Positions 1 through 7,824 of a DNA stretch of 64,000 bases are shown here, in pieces. Origin of the DNA: Candidatus Hodarchaeota archaeon (GTDB lineage Archaea; Asgardarchaeota; Heimdallarchaeia; Hodarchaeales; Hodarchaeaceae); assembly GCA_016840035.1 (NCBI GenBank), contig JAEOTC010000076.1, positions 1 through 64,000 on the forward strand. Direction: 5' to 3'. The number at the start of each line of letters is the position of its first letter. The stretch's first letter is position 1. The notes under the pieces are model-generated. The model saw only the letters and a list, made by a program, of their open reading frames with translations. It was not told where the DNA came from and ran no database searches. A program made the translations under genes and the position numbers.

Positions 1-21
1 AATTATTGATCATTTCTTACC

Positions 22-69
22 ATATGAACAATTTCCACATGTTTATATGAACAATGTTTATTGTCCATA
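22..69. promoter_or_regulatory. Operator-like direct and inverted repeat overlapping a TATA-like box
   Basis: ATATGAACAAT at 22-32 and 45-55; TATGAACAAT-gttt-ATTGTCCATA inverted repeat at 46-69 (1 mismatch); TTTATAT at 42-48. Confidence 0.55.
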
Positions 70-97
70 CTGAGAGAAAAAACAAGAATTCTACGAA

Positions 98-1837
98 ATG
101 ATTAGAATGGCTTCCTCTGACGCTGTATGGCACTCATTGAGCAAAGAAGATCGAAAAAAAGAATTGATACAGCGTAGATTAGATAATCAAACTTTTGAAC
201 AGATTGCAAAGGATTTATTAGGAACCCCGAAGAAAAAATCCACCATATGGGCATGGGCTCAGAGAAATATGGATAACAATGAAATTTACCCTGCTCTCAG
301 GGCATTATCCCCTGAACCTTTTAAGAAATTCGGGGAGGTTGAACAATGGATCATGTATGACGTTCTTCAATATCTATTTCCACGTTTAGACGCAATGACT
401 GAACATCTCCTTACTGAAGTTCAAAAGACATTAGATAAACAGGATAAACTGCGAGCTGAACAAGAGGTTAAGTTTAAACAAACAGCTGGTTTTTTGGATG
501 AACTTGAACAGCGAGTTATGTCATCTATTCAGCGAAATCTTCGATCAGTTCAAATTCAATCAGGTTCAGCTCCACAACCACCCCGACCTATGGTTGGTGG
601 GGCACCTCCGCCTCCCCCTCCTCCAGGAAGTACCGTACTTCCTACAAGTACCGTACCATCAGGTTCGATGGCCGCTCTACGAACAGATTTTGAAGAAATG
701 AACATGGAGGAAATAACATCTCTCCCACCTGACTTTTTAGAAGCTCTTACTCCTGTAGATCGGGGGAGAATTCAAAATCGGGTCAAAGAGCTGAAAATGA
801 TTGAGAAGATGGCACCTGAGGAACGAGAGGAGTATTTGAGGAAGAAGGAGGAGGAAAAAGCACGGTCCGAAGCAGCTGAAGGTCTAGGTACCTCTCTTAC
901 AGCAATGTTAGACGACGAAGACTCGTTGTTTGCACGGATGCGTCAATCTGCAGATGAATCTGAAGTATCTGGTACGGGTACATTTGGTAAATTCACCACA
1001 GAGTATACGTACATTTATTGTATTGCCTGTGGAAAGACCAATCGTTCAGAAGAAGAGTCGATTGAGGAATGCGGCTATTGTTATGCTGATTCGGATCATC
1101 TAGTTACTGATGACGAGAAATCTAACTTCACTTATCATGAGTGTTTATCCCAAAAATCTCGAGAATATGTTGACCTTGACTATACGCGTGGAAAACAAAT
1201 CAGAATTCTCTCTCGTTGGAAAAAACCCAATGAAGAAGCAACTCATCCTCATAAATGTCCTCCTGATCAAATCCGAGATATAACAACTGCAATTATGTCA
1301 AAAGCTGATCCAGATAAACAGTTCTCGTACTATCTTACACTATTTCGCTTGTACACGCAGTTTAAACTCCAACCCGATTTGAAACCCTTGTTTGAACAGC
1401 TTTCGGCAACCATCCAAAAGCTTCCAGACAGTCCATCCAAGGAAGTTGCAATTACAGATACCTATGAACTGATGGATCATATTCTAGCAATTATTGCTTG
1501 GATGACTGAAAGAAATGTGATTGAAGCTCTCTCTAACTATGCTGACATTCAAGCTAGTATTGATAATCTTGTACTTGATATTGATCCTCTAAGGGACTCT
1601 GAATCTCCTCAAGAGTTACGAAAAGCCAGTGATATAGGGAGTGTAACCTCCAAAGCTGACCAATTATTGAATAAATTTACTGCGATTATTCTACAGATCG
1701 AATCGGAAATTGTGATCCCCTCTCAATGGAAATGTACTAGTTGCAACAATGTCTTTGAAGTGAAGGATCGAAATAAGACTCCTGAAAAATGCGAGTCCTG
1801 TGGGAAAATTATTACCCAACTTCTGCCTGTAGATTAG
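98..1837 (+). CDS. Multidomain protein: N-terminal HTH, coiled coil, polyproline tract, two zinc ribbons
   Basis: TFEQIAKDLLG..KSTIWAW (HTH-like); GGAPPPPPPPG; CIAC..CGYC and CTSC..CESC. Confidence 0.75.
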   Translation: MIRMASSDAVWHSLSKEDRKKELIQRRLDNQTFEQIAKDLLGTPKKKSTIWAWAQRNMDNNEIYPALRALSPEPFKKFGEVEQWIMYDVLQYLFPRLDAMTEHLLTEVQKTLDKQDKLRAEQEVKFKQTAGFLDELEQRVMSSIQRNLRSVQIQSGSAPQPPRPMVGGAPPPPPPPGSTVLPTSTVPSGSMAALRTDFEEMNMEEITSLPPDFLEALTPVDRGRIQNRVKELKMIEKMAPEEREEYLRKKEEEKARSEAAEGLGTSLTAMLDDEDSLFARMRQSADESEVSGTGTFGKFTTEYTYIYCIACGKTNRSEEESIEECGYCYADSDHLVTDDEKSNFTYHECLSQKSREYVDLDYTRGKQIRILSRWKKPNEEATHPHKCPPDQIRDITTAIMSKADPDKQFSYYLTLFRLYTQFKLQPDLKPLFEQLSATIQKLPDSPSKEVAITDTYELMDHILAIIAWMTERNVIEALSNYADIQASIDNLVLDIDPLRDSESPQELRKASDIGSVTSKADQLLNKFTAIILQIESEIVIPSQWKCTSCNNVFEVKDRNKTPEKCESCGKIITQLLPVD

Positions 1838-1856: not shown

Positions 1857-3158
1857 TTAAGGAGTGGCACGATTAATTAATCGTGGATAGAGACATGCTT
1901 CGCGAATGTGATCTAAGTTAAGAATCGCTTGAACAAATCTCTCAAGACCGAGACCAAATCCTGAATGTGGAACGGTTCCATATTTTCTTTGATCTAAGTA
2001 CCAATAGTATGGACTAGGATCCAAACCTTCCTCTTTCATTCGATTGAGTAATAATTCGTAATCATCTTCCCTCTGAGAGGCGCCAATTATCTCTCCTACA
2101 TTGGGGATCAGCAGATCAGCGGCATTCATAACCTTTGGGTTGTTATCATTAAGTTTCATATAGAATGGTTTCATTCCAACGGGGAAGTGAGTTAAGAAGG
2201 TAGGTTTTCCTATAGCATCAACCAACATTCGTTCAGGTCCTTCCGTTAGGTCTTCTCCATATTCGAGAAAAGTCCCTGATTCACCTTTTATATCATACTC
2301 TCTTAATAGGTCAATCGCTTTCTCATATGATACTCTTTCAAAAGGTTTCTTAGGAATATCTACCTTCTGATCGAATTTTGCTACTGTAGGGGACTCTTTG
2401 GCACTTGAATAGACATGAATCATCATATCTTCCATAAAGTTCAACAGATCATCAAAATCATACCAAGGCATTTCTGCCTCGATATGGGTGTATTCAGTCA
2501 AATGCCTTCTTGTTCGTGATTTTTCAGCTCTAAAGGAAGGAAGGACGCAAAAAACGTTCCCCAAGCTAGCTAAAACCGTTTCTAAATATAATTGACTAGA
2601 TTGAGTTAGATAGGCTTCCTGTTCAAAATAATCAAAGCTGAATAGAGTGGATCCTCCTTCAACCTGCGTTTGGACAATTGTACTAGGTGTTACTTCCACA
2701 AAATCTCGTAAAAAGAAGAATTTTCTGAAACTTCTGGTCATCAAATCACGAAACCGCATGATATCAGAAGCTTGCTCACCACGAAGTACTAAATGCCGTT
2801 TATTCAGCAATACTTGTGGTCCTGAATCGGGACGTATTTCATGTTCCAATTCAGGTGATGCATAATCTATTACTGGAGAAATATTATTAATCTGAAGTTC
2901 TAACCCATTATAAGGAGCTCGCTTATCTTCTTTCACTACTCCCTTTGCCGTAACGGCTGTTTCACGTGTTAATTTTTTCGCAACAGTTGTAGCTGCTTCA
3001 CCACTGGCAGGTTTAATAACCGATTGAATATAACCAGTGTTATCACGAATAACAAGGAAAGTGAGCTTTCCCTGTCGTCTAACATGATGTAACCAGCCAC
3101 GTACTGAAACTTCTTCACCTATTCTACTTTTTAGTGATTTAATGGATTCAAAACTCAA
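1857..3158 (-). CDS. asnS: Asparagine--tRNA ligase
   Basis: N-terminal OB fold (VRGW..VRRQGKLTF); YLTQSSQLYLE; FRAEKSRTRRHLTEY; WYLDQRKYGTVPHSGFGLGLER. Confidence 0.93.
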   Translation of the reverse strand: MSFESIKSLKSRIGEEVSVRGWLHHVRRQGKLTFLVIRDNTGYIQSVIKPASGEAATTVAKKLTRETAVTAKGVVKEDKRAPYNGLELQINNISPVIDYASPELEHEIRPDSGPQVLLNKRHLVLRGEQASDIMRFRDLMTRSFRKFFFLRDFVEVTPSTIVQTQVEGGSTLFSFDYFEQEAYLTQSSQLYLETVLASLGNVFCVLPSFRAEKSRTRRHLTEYTHIEAEMPWYDFDDLLNFMEDMMIHVYSSAKESPTVAKFDQKVDIPKKPFERVSYEKAIDLLREYDIKGESGTFLEYGEDLTEGPERMLVDAIGKPTFLTHFPVGMKPFYMKLNDNNPKVMNAADLLIPNVGEIIGASQREDDYELLLNRMKEEGLDPSPYYWYLDQRKYGTVPHSGFGLGLERFVQAILNLDHIREACLYPRLINRATP

Positions 3159-3323
3159 TGTAAGACCTTCTTACAATTAATAAATATTGGAAATCATTTT
3201 TGTTCAAATTTCCAATTCAAGTAGAGCGTTCTAAGTTGTTCTTTTACCAGTTTTGAGAATGACTTTCTGATTTGTTTTCATCTAAATTATAATAAATAGA
3301 ATTCGTAGTACTAAGATGGACGA

Positions 3324-4088
3324 ATGAAAATGAGAAGATCAATCATTTTTATCTGTTTAAGTATAATACTATCACCTTCTTTTGTGTTATCTTCCTCTAA
3401 TAGTCTTGACACCTCAAATTTTGAATGGAAAGTAACAATGGGAGATTCCATAACATATACCTATACAAAATTTTTCGATCGGTTTGATACAGATAGAAAT
3501 GGAGATCCCTTCTCACGACTTCTTACGATAGTCAACACAGACTCAGAAGTGGTCAATATCACCGTGAAAAGGGGATTAGAGATCAAAGCCGTAATTCACG
3601 ATCTCCCAGAATCAGGAGAGGAAGGGCAACTAGTTGATATTCAGTTATCATTTAACGGAATCACCACAGAAGTAAATCAATATGTAGGTTTTTTGGGTGG
3701 TGTCATTGTAAGAGAAACTATCGATAATGAGAGCTATTGGAAAGATCTTGAAGTACAAGAATCTGAGGTTGGAATATCTTATAATTTTACGATTAGTGAG
3801 TACGTTGAAGGAAATGAGTTCATTAGAGAGTTTCATTCAATCTACTCATGGGGGGGAGTTGAACTCACGAAATTCAAAGTGAATTGGAAAACGGGTTGGT
3901 CTACCCATTTCTATATGAGATTAGCTAATAAAACTCATATATTGTCAGAATTTGAAGTAACTACAGACCCGTTAATATTGGAATATTTCTCGAATCTTGA
4001 GAGAATTTCTATTCCTCTCTTGTTCCTTCTGATCCTAACATGCATTGTCATTTTTGGGAAACTGAAAAATCGGAATTTCGGGTATTAA
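3324..4088 (+). CDS. Secreted, C-terminally membrane-anchored surface protein
   Basis: Signal peptide; C-terminal hydrophobic helix followed by basic residues; DTDRNGD loop. Confidence 0.7.
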   Translation: MKMRRSIIFICLSIILSPSFVLSSSNSLDTSNFEWKVTMGDSITYTYTKFFDRFDTDRNGDPFSRLLTIVNTDSEVVNITVKRGLEIKAVIHDLPESGEEGQLVDIQLSFNGITTEVNQYVGFLGGVIVRETIDNESYWKDLEVQESEVGISYNFTISEYVEGNEFIREFHSIYSWGGVELTKFKVNWKTGWSTHFYMRLANKTHILSEFEVTTDPLILEYFSNLERISIPLLFLLILTCIVIFGKLKNRNFGY

Positions 4089-4165
4089 ATTAGACAAAAT
4101 ATTAGTAGTGGTATTCTACTAGAACTCTCTTCTGAAGTAACACCTTTTTAAATTCTCAATACCAT

Positions 4166-4183
4166 TAGCTATTAGAATAGCTA
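4166..4183. promoter_or_regulatory. Perfect 8-bp inverted repeat upstream of the Rab-like gene
   Basis: TAGCTATT-ag-AATAGCTA. Confidence 0.35.
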
Positions 4184-4234
4184 TTTATTACTAACCATCT
4201 GACAGAGATATGAGCTGTTTATAATCTCGTTAAT

Positions 4235-4789
4235 GTGGTCATTTTTATGGTCATGTACAGTTGTAAAGTCATATTACTAGGACAGGGTGGCGTAGGTAAA
4301 ACCTCTGTCATCAGGCGATTTGTAGAGCAGGCTTTCAGTCATGATTATAAAACAACGGTTGGTAGTAACTTTTTACTCAAACGACTACAGCTCGATGCCG
4401 AAACACGTATGACAATTCAGATCTGGGATTTGTCAGGCCAAGATAGCTTTAGGAATATTCGCACACAGTATTTCTTGCACTCCCATGGTGGAATCATGGT
4501 ATATGATTTAACACGACCGGAAACACTTGAAAAACTGAATAAATGGCATGTTGATTTTACTGAGAAGGCAGGTGACGTTCCATTAATGCTCTTTGGCAAT
4601 AAGGTTGATTTGAAGGAAGCAAGAGTAGTTAAACCCGAGGCAGGTATTCAAAAAGCGGAGAAGTTTAATGCCACATATTATGAAACCTCCGCTCTTGATG
4701 GAACTAATGTTCAGGAAGCGTTCACTCAGCTAGCTCTCCAGATTATTGCACATATTGATGCTAGAAGAAGTAAAATTGCAAAAAAGTGA
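4235..4789 (+). CDS. Rab-like small GTPase (start may be a downstream ATG)
   Basis: G1 GQGGVGKT; G2 YKTTVG; G3 WDLSGQ; G4 NKVD; G5 ETSA. Confidence 0.92.
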   Translation: MVIFMVMYSCKVILLGQGGVGKTSVIRRFVEQAFSHDYKTTVGSNFLLKRLQLDAETRMTIQIWDLSGQDSFRNIRTQYFLHSHGGIMVYDLTRPETLEKLNKWHVDFTEKAGDVPLMLFGNKVDLKEARVVKPEAGIQKAEKFNATYYETSALDGTNVQEAFTQLALQIIAHIDARRSKIAKK

Positions 4790-4988
4790 CAATTTTACTT
4801 TTTACGCAATTCGGTTTTATCTATGTATTATTACTGAGATTATTGAGGCATTGGGAAACTTTTCACCTATCGATACCAGACTTTTTTCCATCCCTCATCC
4901 TTCTTCACAATCCATTCCTTTGAAAATAAATCTATTTATAGGAGTACTATGATTATTCAATTACCGGGTGTGAAAGAGCCGAGTAATT

Positions 4989-5186
4989 ATGAGTAAAAAG
5001 GACGATCCTCTATTAATATTTACTACGAAAGTTAGTCGTTGTGCCAATGGTTACCATCTAAAAATTCGGAAAAAAGATGTTGAATTACTAAAATTAGCCG
5101 GTCAGATGGTCAAGATAAAGGTGTACTCTGTCGGCCTAGATGAAGAGGAAGAAGCAAAAGATCCTTATGAAAAGTTAGTTGATTAA
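4989..5186 (+). CDS. Small AbrB/DUF2080-like swapped-hairpin protein
   Basis: TKVSRCANGYHLKI..L.GQMVKIKV pattern; acidic tail. Confidence 0.55.
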   Translation: MSKKDDPLLIFTTKVSRCANGYHLKIRKKDVELLKLAGQMVKIKVYSVGLDEEEEAKDPYEKLVD

Positions 5187-5238
5187 CGAAGGCTTTTAAC
5201 CATTTATTCCTACCCGATTATGAAGAGGTTTCATTCAC

Positions 5239-5997
5239 ATGTCCGAAGGATCGTTAAATGTAAAACCAACGGGGATCACAAATTTCGATAAAATTTTAGG
5301 TGGTGGGTTACCTGCAGGTTGGTTTATTGCATTACGAGGAGGAGCTGGTGTAGGAAAAACAACTCTTGCTATCCAGTTTCTACTTGAAGGAATTCTGAAG
5401 TATCATGATCCAGGTTTGTTAGTCACTTTCAATGAACCATTACCCGCATTGAATGCCATTATGCGAAATTATGGATGGGATTTACAGGGATTACAAGATA
5501 TGGGAGAACTATCCGTCCTAGATTTTAGTTCAACAGAAATGGGGATCATGCAACAAGCTAGCCGACTGCGGGAAGCCTCCCTTGATTATGTTACACAGAA
5601 AATCATAGACGAAGTTAGACGATTAGGTGTCAACCGATTAGTTATCGATCCATTAAACACATTCTCGTTACTCTTCCGAGATTTATTTGAAGTCCGTAAA
5701 GAACTCCATCGTGTAATCGGTATTTTGTGGCAAGAGAAATGTACAACATTAGCTGTGTATGAGAATACTGATGATGCAGTTACTGATGTCCAAAATCCAC
5801 AGTTTTCTACAGAGGATTTCTTATCGTATGGTGTAATCAATCTCCAATATATGCTTGTGAACTCCTCACGAGAACGAGCCATTGAAATTCTGAAAATGCG
5901 TGGTATGAATCACAGTAAACGTGTTCATCCTTTCGCAATAACTACTAAAGGAATTGACATTAAGGTAGACAAACCGATTGATTTTAGTAAAAGATGA
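5239..5997 (+). CDS. Single-domain KaiC-like (RecA superfamily) ATPase
   Basis: PTGI..FDKILGGG; Walker A GGAGVGKT; RLVID; ILKMRG..H. Confidence 0.9.
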   Translation: MSEGSLNVKPTGITNFDKILGGGLPAGWFIALRGGAGVGKTTLAIQFLLEGILKYHDPGLLVTFNEPLPALNAIMRNYGWDLQGLQDMGELSVLDFSSTEMGIMQQASRLREASLDYVTQKIIDEVRRLGVNRLVIDPLNTFSLLFRDLFEVRKELHRVIGILWQEKCTTLAVYENTDDAVTDVQNPQFSTEDFLSYGVINLQYMLVNSSRERAIEILKMRGMNHSKRVHPFAITTKGIDIKVDKPIDFSKR

Positions 5998-6080
5998 CTG
6001 ATTTCTTTTACTAGTACAGAACCATTTTTCAATTCGCATAGACTACTTCCTTTTACACATATTTAACACCCTGATGCATC

Positions 6081-6869
6081 ATGGAAGAACATCTTAAGAC
6101 TCAAACTTGGAGAATTATTCCCTATTCCCAAAACGATGCCTATCTCAATATGGGTATAGATGAAGCCATCTACCAGCTATATAAAGATCATAAAATTAAT
6201 ACCCTACGGTTATATAGTTGGTACCCGAGCACAGCATCAATTGGTCACCATCAATGTCTAAATGACGAAATAGATTTATCTATGGTTAAGAAACATCAGT
6301 TTCAAGCGGTAAGACGTATTTCTGGTGGAGGTGCCGTTTTTCATGATTCAACGAAAGAATTAACATATTCTGTCGTAACCAATACCGAGTATGTATCGAA
6401 TAAATCCATTGAAGCAAGTTACTATCAGATTGTGAACCTCTTATTCTCTCCCCTTGCCAAACTTGGCATTCTAGTGAATTATGACCAGGTTCACTGCCCA
6501 AGTGTATTTAGTAAAGGCAAGAAAATATCTGGGAATGCTCAAGCTAGATCAGGAAATGTGATTCTCCAGCATGGAACGATTCTCATTGATTATGATCCCG
6601 AATTAATGTATTCTGTTCTTAAAGCTCGTCCAGGGAGGACTAAAACGCAAATGGTACAGTCTGTGTATCAAAAGATTACTACGATACAGGAACAAACACA
6701 AACAACAACGTTTTCTCCTTCCTCCCTAGCAGAATTTATTATTCAAGATTTATTAGAAAGCCATCCTACGACTTTTTCATTGGGGAAATTAACTGAAGAA
6801 GAAAAACAACTCTCAGAGAGATTGACTGAAGAAAGGTATAAATCTGAAGAATGGTTATTTCTCAAGTAG
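6081..6869 (+). CDS. Lipoate-protein ligase family protein (LplA/LipM)
   Basis: NMGIDEA; RRISGGGAVFHD; KKISGNAQ; LQHGT. Confidence 0.9.
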   Translation: MEEHLKTQTWRIIPYSQNDAYLNMGIDEAIYQLYKDHKINTLRLYSWYPSTASIGHHQCLNDEIDLSMVKKHQFQAVRRISGGGAVFHDSTKELTYSVVTNTEYVSNKSIEASYYQIVNLLFSPLAKLGILVNYDQVHCPSVFSKGKKISGNAQARSGNVILQHGTILIDYDPELMYSVLKARPGRTKTQMVQSVYQKITTIQEQTQTTTFSPSSLAEFIIQDLLESHPTTFSLGKLTEEEKQLSERLTEERYKSEEWLFLK

Positions 6870-7824
6870 ATATTCCAACTTGATCCTGAAATTCTTGCTG
6901 AAGATAATAAACTAAAAAATTCTTTGGAAATAAATATCTACCATTTGTTTGATATTTATTCAGCTCTTGGGGGAATGTTTTCTCGAGATGATCCACTACC
7001 GATTCCGCTACCATCCTAGCTAAGGAGAGATCTGATTTATTATCCACAATTATCGCACATAGAAGTGTTTTTTTCTTAACTATTACTATCGAATAATTCT
7101 CAGCAATTAAGGAATCTAATCCCTCAGTAGCTCCCATCATACCTCTGGCAATTTCATCAATTGCATTCAAAAATCCAGGCACAATATCATTATCCATTGC
7201 TGATTTAGGTTGGTTCATAAATAAGTGAGAAGCAATAGGCATACCTGAACGAAGAAAAAGATAAATTCCCTCAATTTTGATATATTTTTTCGACATAGAA
7301 ATCGTTATTTTTTGAGAAAACCAGTTTAATGCCCGATAAATATTCAGGCCTGTTTTAACAGATATCTCGAAAATTTGAAATGATCTAGTAGGACTCTGAT
7401 GTGGTAAGTTCCGAAGCTTAACCTTATCAATTAGCTTGGGCAGTTCCATATGAGTTAAATCCGCCTTATTTGCTAATATCATGAGAGGGGCCTCTGGATT
7501 CCATTCTAGGCATTTCCACAGCCATTCCACCGAAACATCCAGCTTCTCGAGATCGCTCGCATCAATCATAAAGACAATGCCTTGTGAAAGTTTTACATAC
7601 TCTTCCCAAAACATTTCTCGGAATCTTTCCTGACCCCCCAGATCAAACAGCTGAAAAAGTGTGCCTTGAATTTCCAACATTTCGGTATCGAGTCCTGTAG
7701 TCGGAAGAGTTTTGCCAAATTCACCAGTTTGTAATCGTAACACAAAAGATGATTTTCCTGCAAATTCTAACCCGACGATAACAATTGGAATCCGTTTTCT
7801 GGGAAGATATTGCACGTTGTACAC
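6862..7824 (-). CDS. Arf/Sar-like small GTPase fused to a C-terminal longin-like domain
   Basis: GLEFAGKS; PTTG; FDLGGQ; ANKAD; ISVKTG; C-terminal GIYLFLRSGMPIASH..GFLNAI pattern. Confidence 0.8.
   Translation of the reverse strand: MYNVQYLPRKRIPIVIVGLEFAGKSSFVLRLQTGEFGKTLPTTGLDTEMLEIQGTLFQLFDLGGQERFREMFWEEYVKLSQGIVFMIDASDLEKLDVSVEWLWKCLEWNPEAPLMILANKADLTHMELPKLIDKVKLRNLPHQSPTRSFQIFEISVKTGLNIYRALNWFSQKITISMSKKYIKIEGIYLFLRSGMPIASHLFMNQPKSAMDNDIVPGFLNAIDEIARGMMGATEGLDSLIAENYSIVIVKKKTLLCAIIVDNKSDLSLARMVAESVVDHLEKTFPQELNKYQTNGRYLFPKNFLVYYLQQEFQDQVGIST

Follow-up and report, generated by a model that had tools for sequence, protein, structure and literature searches.

Among described proteins, an arrangement close to the one reported here is that of p42POP/MYPOP, a vertebrate Myb-related factor whose proline cluster reportedly binds profilin and modulates transcriptional activity; this factor carries a tri-helical helix-turn-helix (HTH) domain, a helical oligomerisation region and the proline cluster in one polypeptide. 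In Asgard archaea, a 2026 study lists only gelsolins and profilins as actin regulators (PMC13716822), and natural proline-rich partners (PMC9433394), like nucleation or elongation machineries using polyproline (PMC9433394; PMC13716822), are described as undiscovered. The only Asgard profilins reported to bind polyproline, with a human VASP peptide, are those of Heimdallarchaeota LC3 (PDB 6YRR) and of one Thorarchaeota (PMC8410842), and LC3 is now placed in Hodarchaeales (bioRxiv 10.1101/2025.05.24.653377). The stretch analysed here, called the window, comprises 64,000 nucleotides (nt) of a Candidatus Hodarchaeota archaeon (assembly GCA_016840035.1, contig JAEOTC010000076.1, positions 1 to 64,000, forward strand), and its first gene (98..1837, + strand) encodes a protein of 579 amino acids (aa) with an HTH-like N-terminus and a run of seven prolines.

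This protein is read here as a Hodarchaeales-specific, probably autoregulated, sequence-specific DNA-binding regulator, whose HTH would bind ATGAAC repeats overlapping the TATA box of its own gene. A flexible linker would present a polyproline tract of 6-7 residues, followed by an acidic helical module and a zinc ribbon, and these three parts would form the family-defining effector module, fused to the HTH in this protein, whereas in a short paralog its gene shares an operon with that of a winged-helix protein. The tract would let a proline-recognition protein dock, with profilin as the leading candidate because it is the only recognisable protein of this kind in the window's genome, and the regulator would be coupled to the profilin/actin-monomer pool, with a logic like that of p42POP/MYPOP or MRTF. 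A regulator with a docking tract, the identity of the reader being left open, is a tentative reading as a whole, at a little under even odds. DNA-binding regulator is a probable assignment, docking motif is a fairly likely one for the tract, and profilin as its reader is possible but doubtful.

Polyproline tract, family and protein layout

The open reading frame (ORF) named in the original prediction is present with its features at 98..1837, and a second in-frame ATG at 107 offers an alternative start. The protein shows the following parts, with the evidence in brackets:

98..1837, + strand: whole gene, 579 aa plus stop (ORF call, homologs, alignment)
119..283, + strand: predicted N-terminal three-helix HTH-like domain, aa 8-62, mildly basic, pI 9.2 (AlphaFold2 model, sub-threshold HTH matches)
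335..550, + strand: long predicted helical region, aa 80-151, with conserved W84, D88, P95, H103, F126 and TAGFLD (alignment, AlphaFold2)
551..682, + strand: disordered Pro-rich linker, aa 152-195, predicted local distance difference test (pLDDT) <40, with PQPPRP and GGAPPPPPPPG (AlphaFold2, alignment)
683..967, + strand: conserved acidic helical module, aa 196-290, net charge -12 (common to all three family architectures)
968..1102, + strand: SGTGTFGKF motif and predicted zinc ribbon 1, with C308, C311, C325 and C328 (Cys conservation; weak DUF7130 and zinc-ribbon matches)
1103..1309, + strand: beta-rich part of the C-terminal domain, aa 336-404, with invariant C349, SRWK and C387 (alignment, domain model)
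1310..1720, + strand: predicted four-helix bundle, aa 405-541, without conserved His/Glu metal ligands (domain model)
1721..1834, + strand: predicted C-terminal zinc ribbon 2, with C546, C549, C565 and C568 (Cys conservation)

By word-indexed search, 58 clusters of homologs at 39-90% identity came to light, in metagenome-assembled genomes labelled Hodarchaeales, Hodarchaeota or Heimdallarchaeota and in a few others that are probably mislabelled; with HMMER, searched exhaustively, 1.84 billion representatives yielded only 28. The core profile matches 23 of 400 Asgard genomes, all in the order of the window (21 of 21 genomes of one family plus the window's genome, and one of two genomes of a second family), and none of the 376 genomes outside it. 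These searches indicate a family confined to Hodarchaeales and lineage-defining. Literature searches for the family or for DUF7130 gave no description, the original prediction having likewise known of none for the architecture; the family is real and undescribed in the searched literature.

The tract occupies aa 170-176, exactly at nt 605-625 as first noted, within the linker segment GGAPPPPPPPGS. It is encoded by CCT CCG CCT CCC CCT CCT CCA and, since four different Pro codons are mixed, it is not a slippage repeat. The original prediction had made much depend on conservation of the tract in Asgard homologs, and this was found: in an alignment of 29 family sequences, with identity to the window protein down to 22%, the sole invariant columns are P173, P174, L217 and G294, with P172 close to invariance. 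The proline run is the most conserved feature across both paralogs of the family, the long one of the window and a short one. Among 37 orthologs of both paralogs the run length is 4-8, mostly 6-7, and synonymous codons vary freely, so that selection acts on the amino acids of the tract; in the long paralog its flanks, G-[GA]-x-Pn-G-[ST], are conserved as well. A census of the 4099 ORFs of at least 100 aa in the window's 4.3-Mb genome (87% complete) shows at least five consecutive prolines in six ORFs and seven in two, both of them members of this family and with the longest Pro runs in the genome. The presence of P7 in 2 of 4099 ORFs, together with the 58 clusters of homologs, indicates that the features of this ORF exceed chance.

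The main rival to docking, considered unlikely, keeps the DNA-binding regulator and takes the tract for a translational pause that would make the level of the protein depend on aIF5A, or for a rigid polyproline II spacer separating the DNA-binding and effector parts. PPP and PPG are strong stalling motifs, and the polyproline motif of E. coli CadC reportedly depends on EF-P; the two longest Pro runs of the genome are both in regulator-type systems, and a pause or a spacer would tolerate a run length of 4-8. However, the residues flanking the prolines are also conserved in the long paralog, the tract is in an exposed disordered linker, as docking motifs are, and consecutive prolines kept nearly invariant while overall identity drops to 22% are more than a mere spacer would require.

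Pfam and NCBIfam scans of the 579-aa protein gave no family at cut-off, and a PDB sequence search gave no significant match. The AlphaFold2 model, built on an alignment of 24 sequences, shows a three-helix N-terminus (approximately aa 10-60), a helix at 80-151, disorder at 151-195, helices at 203-288 and a compact C-terminal domain. The long helix corresponds to the coiled coil of the original prediction, of which the helix stands and the heptad register does not: hydrophobic residues fill at most 10 of 21 a/d positions in any register, with none standing out, and the invariant Pro95 sits within the helix, so that for the long paralog a coiled coil is putative at most. This helix may mediate dimerisation.

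The segments quoted in the original prediction, SMAALRTDF and LTAMLDDEDSLFARMR, are present in the most conserved part of the protein. The acidic module shows the motifs RTDFEEMxMEEIxxLPxxFLExL, RVKELK, MxPEERExY and SLTAMLDDxDSLFARMR, and gave no significant match in Pfam or PDB, including a search of PDB sequences with a core-module profile. Weak Pfam matches to DUF7167 and TFIIE-A_C on this module, and to Sigma70_r4_2 at aa 232-269, were judged compositional. WH2 or GAB helices had been proposed here; the module does not bear them out, as it has no LKK[TV]-type motif, RVKELK includes a nearly invariant Glu231 within a predicted helix at 219-237, and its net charge is that given above. Two of its motifs underlie the least probable of the rival explanations, a ubiquitin/ESCRT adaptor in which LPxxFLExL would be a ubiquitin-binding motif (UBM-like) and DSLFARMR a MIM-like helix for the MIT domain of Vps4. 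This likeness is one of motifs only, and Asgard archaea encode both ubiquitin and ESCRT systems; against it, Pfam scans at E up to 1 show no UBM- or ESCRT-related family, and the conserved neighbourhood of the gene contains no ESCRT or ubiquitin genes.

The two CxxC..CxxC ribbons of the original prediction (C308/C311 with C325/C328, and C546/C549 with C565/C568) are both there. In a Cys4 zinc ribbon, beta hairpins carry a pair of CxxC knuckles separated by about 12-20 residues, and both motifs show this spacing, with beta strands flanking each knuckle in a model of pLDDT 90; both are predicted zinc ribbons. In 24 orthologs the cysteines of ribbon 1 are invariant and those of ribbon 2 nearly invariant; ribbon 1 is invariant or nearly invariant family-wide, and ribbon 2 is missing in four divergent full-length relatives (P0053, P0058, P0061 and P0062) and in the shorter architectures. 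Pfam scans gave weak ribbon matches to Zn_ribbon_8, HypA, DZR and L37e. The window protein (P0001) matches DUF7130 with 26.6 bits over aa 273-337, under the gathering score of 35 bits, and 13 of 29 members match it (best E 3.1e-10). As this model also matches unrelated zinc-ribbon ORFs in the window's genome and in six control genomes, the likeness is mostly to the ribbon.

A separate model of the C-terminal domain by itself has pLDDT 90 and a predicted TM-score (pTM) of 0.85, with a four-helix bundle between the two Cys4 ribbons plus beta elements. Foldseek searches of PDB with the full model and with this domain gave nothing at E <=0.001 (all E >0.1), and in the ESM Atlas the shape search stayed at TM <0.3 and the feature search gave no usable match. 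The matches of the bundle in VIA-align are generic (Z 8-10.7: hemerythrin, alpha-catenin and vinculin actin-binding bundles, Rsd and FAT) and were left unused as evidence, the stated noise for helical bundles being about Z 13. The best row for the domain is the hemerythrin DcrH-Hr (Z 10.7, root-mean-square deviation 3.2 A over 123 residues). A four-helix bundle beside a Cys4 ribbon recalls a rubrerythrin- or hemerythrin-like bundle with a rubredoxin-like ribbon, an arrangement from which the automatic JGI name 'rubrerythrin' derives. In contrast to those proteins, the invariant residues of the bundle are P405, D406, Q408, F409, L424, L428, Q440, D444, N490, D494, Q505 and Q522, with no conserved His/Glu; rubrerythrin or hemerythrin identity was rejected, since the conserved metal ligands are missing.

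Tract and bundle together bear on a minor and very unlikely rival, a factor for actin assembly, like Ena/VASP, formins or WASP, whose tract would deliver profilin-actin to adjacent actin-binding helices for the nucleation or elongation of filaments. Its appeal lies in the GP5-like tract followed by conserved helices, in the polyproline-using Asgard nucleation or elongation machineries still undiscovered (PMC9433394; PMC13716822), and in the weak resemblance of the bundle to the vinculin-tail and alpha-catenin actin-binding bundles (Z 8.8-9.6). That resemblance, however, is within the helical-bundle noise, hemerythrin scores higher, and the module after the tract is strongly acidic whereas WH2/GAB need basic LKK[TV]/LRKV. 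Pfam scans of the 29 family members at E up to 0.1 show no FH2, the C-terminal domain having a zinc-ribbon plus four-helix-bundle fold instead; WH1/EVH1 was not found by Pfam in the window protein, whose N-terminus is HTH-like, and neither WH2 nor other actin-binding families appear in the Pfam scans of family members. With Ena/VASP and formin FH1 the protein has in common a G/A-(Pro)5-8-G tract in a disordered linker beside a helical region, and a host profilin with a conserved polyproline site; it differs from them in lacking EVH1, GAB/FAB and FH2, in its single tract rather than an array, in its acidic downstream module, and in an HTH and operator that an assembly factor would not be expected to have.

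Operator and operon contexts of the two paralogs

The regulator reading starts from the HTH-like N-terminus, which had been noted from the DNA alone and is retained: AlphaFold2 predicts helices at 16-28, 33-41 and 44-57 with pLDDT 81-88, W11, R27, I50, W53 and N57 are invariant in the ortholog alignments, and in Pfam scans of 15 members seven match HTH_38 (best E 1.5e-4) and seven match HTH_23 (1.7e-3). Upstream of the gene lies one further conserved element, which lends the HTH-like assignment indirect support:

14..63, + strand: conserved promoter/operator block, with two direct copies of ATATGAACAA at 22-31 and 45-54, 23 bp apart (alignment of loci)

The second copy overlaps a TATA-like TTTATAT. 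Five orthologous loci are identical over approximately 60 nt ahead of the start codon, the sequence farther upstream being unalignable, and orthologs at about 55% protein identity show GTTCATATGAACGTTCAT-type overlapping palindromes at the same position. Upstream of 20 orthologous loci, copies of the half-site ATGAAC/GTTCAT number 2.65 per 140 nt, against a mean of 0.083 in 1588 background windows, an approximately 30-fold enrichment to which no formal probability is attached because the 20 loci are related. At least one half-site is present in 20 of 20 loci and at least two in 18 of 20, and 0.3% of the background windows contain two or more. In the window's genome the ATATGAACAA pair is found at one place only, and looking for a regulon with ATATGAACAA returned 34 exact matches where base composition would, by our estimate, give about 29, so there is no enrichment. 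Autoregulated homeodomain-like HTH regulators (HTH_23, HTH_38, sigma-70 region 4-like) share with this protein the sequence pattern and the predicted three-helix fold, and with its gene the repeated or palindromic sites overlapping its own promoter; unlike known HTH regulators, the window protein gives sub-threshold matches, and its other approximately 500 residues have no counterpart among them.

Several further observations concern these sites. The 3' end of contig C283 (4523 bp; G000:C283:4397-4523) is identical to window 1-127 (contig C11), so the two contigs abut, and the true upstream neighbour of the window gene is a 451-aa ORF (C283:2961-4316, + strand), about 190 nt before the start codon. 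A second operator copy is found at G000:C123:18880-18945 (L099/L100), with TCTTACCATATGAACAA, equal to window 15-31, followed by three or four GTTCAT/ATGAAC-like half-sites. This cluster is intergenic, with no obvious downstream gene and no Rfam match, is kept in three close relatives (G002, G005 and G007), and could serve as another target, as the promoter of a small RNA or as a decoy. Two divergent intergenic regions, at G000:C208:4352-4377 and G000:C218:2355-2379, contain direct repeats of TTCATGAA(C) about 18-20 bp apart. One is beside a gene encoding a major facilitator superfamily (MFS) transporter, and the other is between amine-oxidase/phytoene-desaturase-like and phytoene/squalene synthase (carotenoid) genes. 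The pairs look unrelated, and they are probably sites of another regulator.

Three architectures with a common core are found among the family members, and nearly every genome contains two paralogs, mostly a long copy with a short copy:

Type A: HTH, long helix, Pro tract, acidic module, ribbon and large C-terminal domain, as in the window gene
Type B: as type A, without the C-terminal domain
Type C: 310-400 aa; an N-terminal NPF-containing motif and zinc ribbon replace the HTH, followed by a clear coiled coil
L005 1492..2574 (G000:C28:52218-53300), - strand: short type C paralog of the window's genome, 360 aa, with the other P7 of the genome
L005 2591..3205, - strand: winged-helix-like operon partner of this paralog

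At the N-terminus, type C proteins share the conserved motif KNPFxNLExxLxxLG, accompanied by an additional zinc ribbon. A winged-helix-like gene (204-247 aa) is directly upstream of the type C gene, on the same strand and with a gap of -1 to 16 nt, in 16 of 16 genomes, and the other neighbours vary. Upstream of the type C operon there is a separate conserved palindromic element, TTTAGACTTGCCTATA / TAGACAAGTCTA, and no ATGAAC/GTTCAT half-sites are present there; hhalign shows no homology between the winged-helix partner and the long paralog. The Pro-tract core is tied twice to DNA-binding-type domains, by HTH fusion and by the winged-helix operon, each with a conserved operator-like element. 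The operator and this operon suggest an autoregulated DNA-binding regulator, and, as far as sequence can indicate, both paralog systems would be regulators of this kind.

Profilin as candidate reader of the tract

The window's genome encodes both an actin (440 bits to Pfam Actin) and profilin, as the original prediction had supposed for its host. There are two profilin paralogs, barely detected by Pfam (profilin E 0.012), and the main one matches 6YRR at E 2e-36. The second (G000:C114:71919-72254, + strand, locus L051) is divergent, with 30% identity to the main profilin, and similar second copies are present in most genomes of the order. The dissociation constant (Kd) of LC3 profilin for polyproline is 0.3 mM without its N-terminal extension and 3.3 mM with it, and the residues shifted by polyproline included G49, Y52, W53, A111, A145 and F147 (PMC8410842). 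These align to G26, Y29, W30, A89, A119 and F121 of the host profilin, of which A119 varies and the other five are invariant in 18 Hodarchaeales profilins. These 18, and the host form, are without the N-terminal extension, like the deltaN form with a Kd of 0.3 mM. Pfam models of other proline readers (WW, GYF, WH1 and SH3_1) gave nothing above noise in the window's genome (WH1 E 0.79). With a ZPPPPP-type profilin-ligand motif, of the kind that would bind in the N/C-helix groove of profilin, and a conserved profilin site both present, profilin is a plausible, circumstantial reader, and no better candidate than this family is available for the natural ligand of an archaeal profilin. Another candidate profilin ligand is one of the other four ORFs with five consecutive prolines, a 285-aa gelsolin-domain protein (P0093; G000:C122:4133-4990, - strand, locus L107) that matches Heimdall 2DGel (PDB 7WHF) at E 1.4e-8 and has PPPPP in a Lys/Pro-rich linker.

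A number of points weigh against a regulator that docks profilin. On the DNA side, every HTH_38 and HTH_23 match is under the Pfam gathering score, the HTH profile gave no significant match against PDB sequences (only Tfx at E 1.2), and the operator could be bound by another regulator. No ATGAAC half-sites are found upstream of the profilin genes, and the operator-site searches of the window's genome gave no actin-related regulon. On the profilin side, the affinities of Asgard profilins for polyproline are weak, 0.3-3 mM (PMC8410842), and the negative results for other proline readers are low-powered, because the Pfam profilin model barely sees the profilin of this same genome. Finally, the family is missing in all other Asgard lineages with actin and profilin and is therefore outside the core actin machinery. 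The likeness to p42POP/MYPOP has its own limits: there is no detectable sequence relationship, and only the archaeal family has this domain order, this acidic module and these zinc ribbons and bundle. The original prediction had left a choice between a DNA-actin tether and an actin-coupled regulator. The tether found no support, and the regulator is the better of the two, fitting an autoregulated regulator whose tract may dock profilin; that interpretation is, overall, partly supported.

Gene neighbourhood and meaning for Hodarchaeales

In 15 of 22 orthologous loci the gene is followed by a conserved block (window 1857-7824), and the upstream genes vary:

1857-3158, convergent with the window gene: asparaginyl-tRNA synthetase (AsnRS)
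4235-4789: Ras/Roc-type small GTPase
5239-5997: KaiC-like ATPase
6081-6869: lipoate-protein ligase
6862-7824, - strand: larger protein similar to the Ras/Roc GTPase

Between the first two genes, a 254-aa ORF (3324-4088, + strand) shows an N-terminal signal-like and a C-terminal hydrophobic segment and no Pfam match, with homologs at the same position in some close relatives.

This neighbourhood bears on the ParR-like segregation role that had also been proposed, by which the protein would be an adaptor that helps to position or segregate DNA by linking specific sites on it to profilin-actin or to actin filaments. A ParR-type gene lies beside that of an actin-like ATPase (ParM), and its protein binds a centromeric repeat array. 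The HTH-like domain with a specific repeated DNA site, the actin and profilin of the host, and the second conserved cluster, with 4-5 half-sites and intergenic without an obvious downstream gene, would suit such an adaptor. However, there is no actin-like gene in the conserved neighbourhood, where AsnRS, Ras-like GTPase, KaiC-like ATPase and lipoate ligase genes are found instead, and actin is on another contig. The site at the gene's own promoter has two repeat copies and overlaps the TATA box, as an autoregulatory operator would, and only two site clusters exist in the genome. No recognisable actin-binding motif appears in the Pfam scans, and all other actin-bearing Asgard lineages lack the family. 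A ParR-like adaptor is a minor and quite improbable alternative to the autoregulated regulator with a docking tract.

New here are the ATGAAC-repeat operator and the tight operon of the short paralog with a winged-helix gene, and operator and operon partner give the family a defined DNA context. Universal in the order and with the only P7 tracts of the genome, its members are concrete candidate profilin ligands. The most far-reaching proposal, that the invariant polyproline of two Hodarchaeal regulator systems is a physiological profilin ligand, by which expression was wired to the profilin/actin-monomer pool before eukaryotes in an MRTF- or p42POP-like manner, or DNA sites recruit profilin-actin, is rather unlikely on present evidence. 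If profilin does not bind, the family would still provide a pair of regulators that defines the lineage, with an uncharacterised effector module. If it binds, this would be the first archaeal link of the actin system to gene regulation or DNA, in an order proposed to contain close, or the nearest, relatives that eukaryotes have among archaea.

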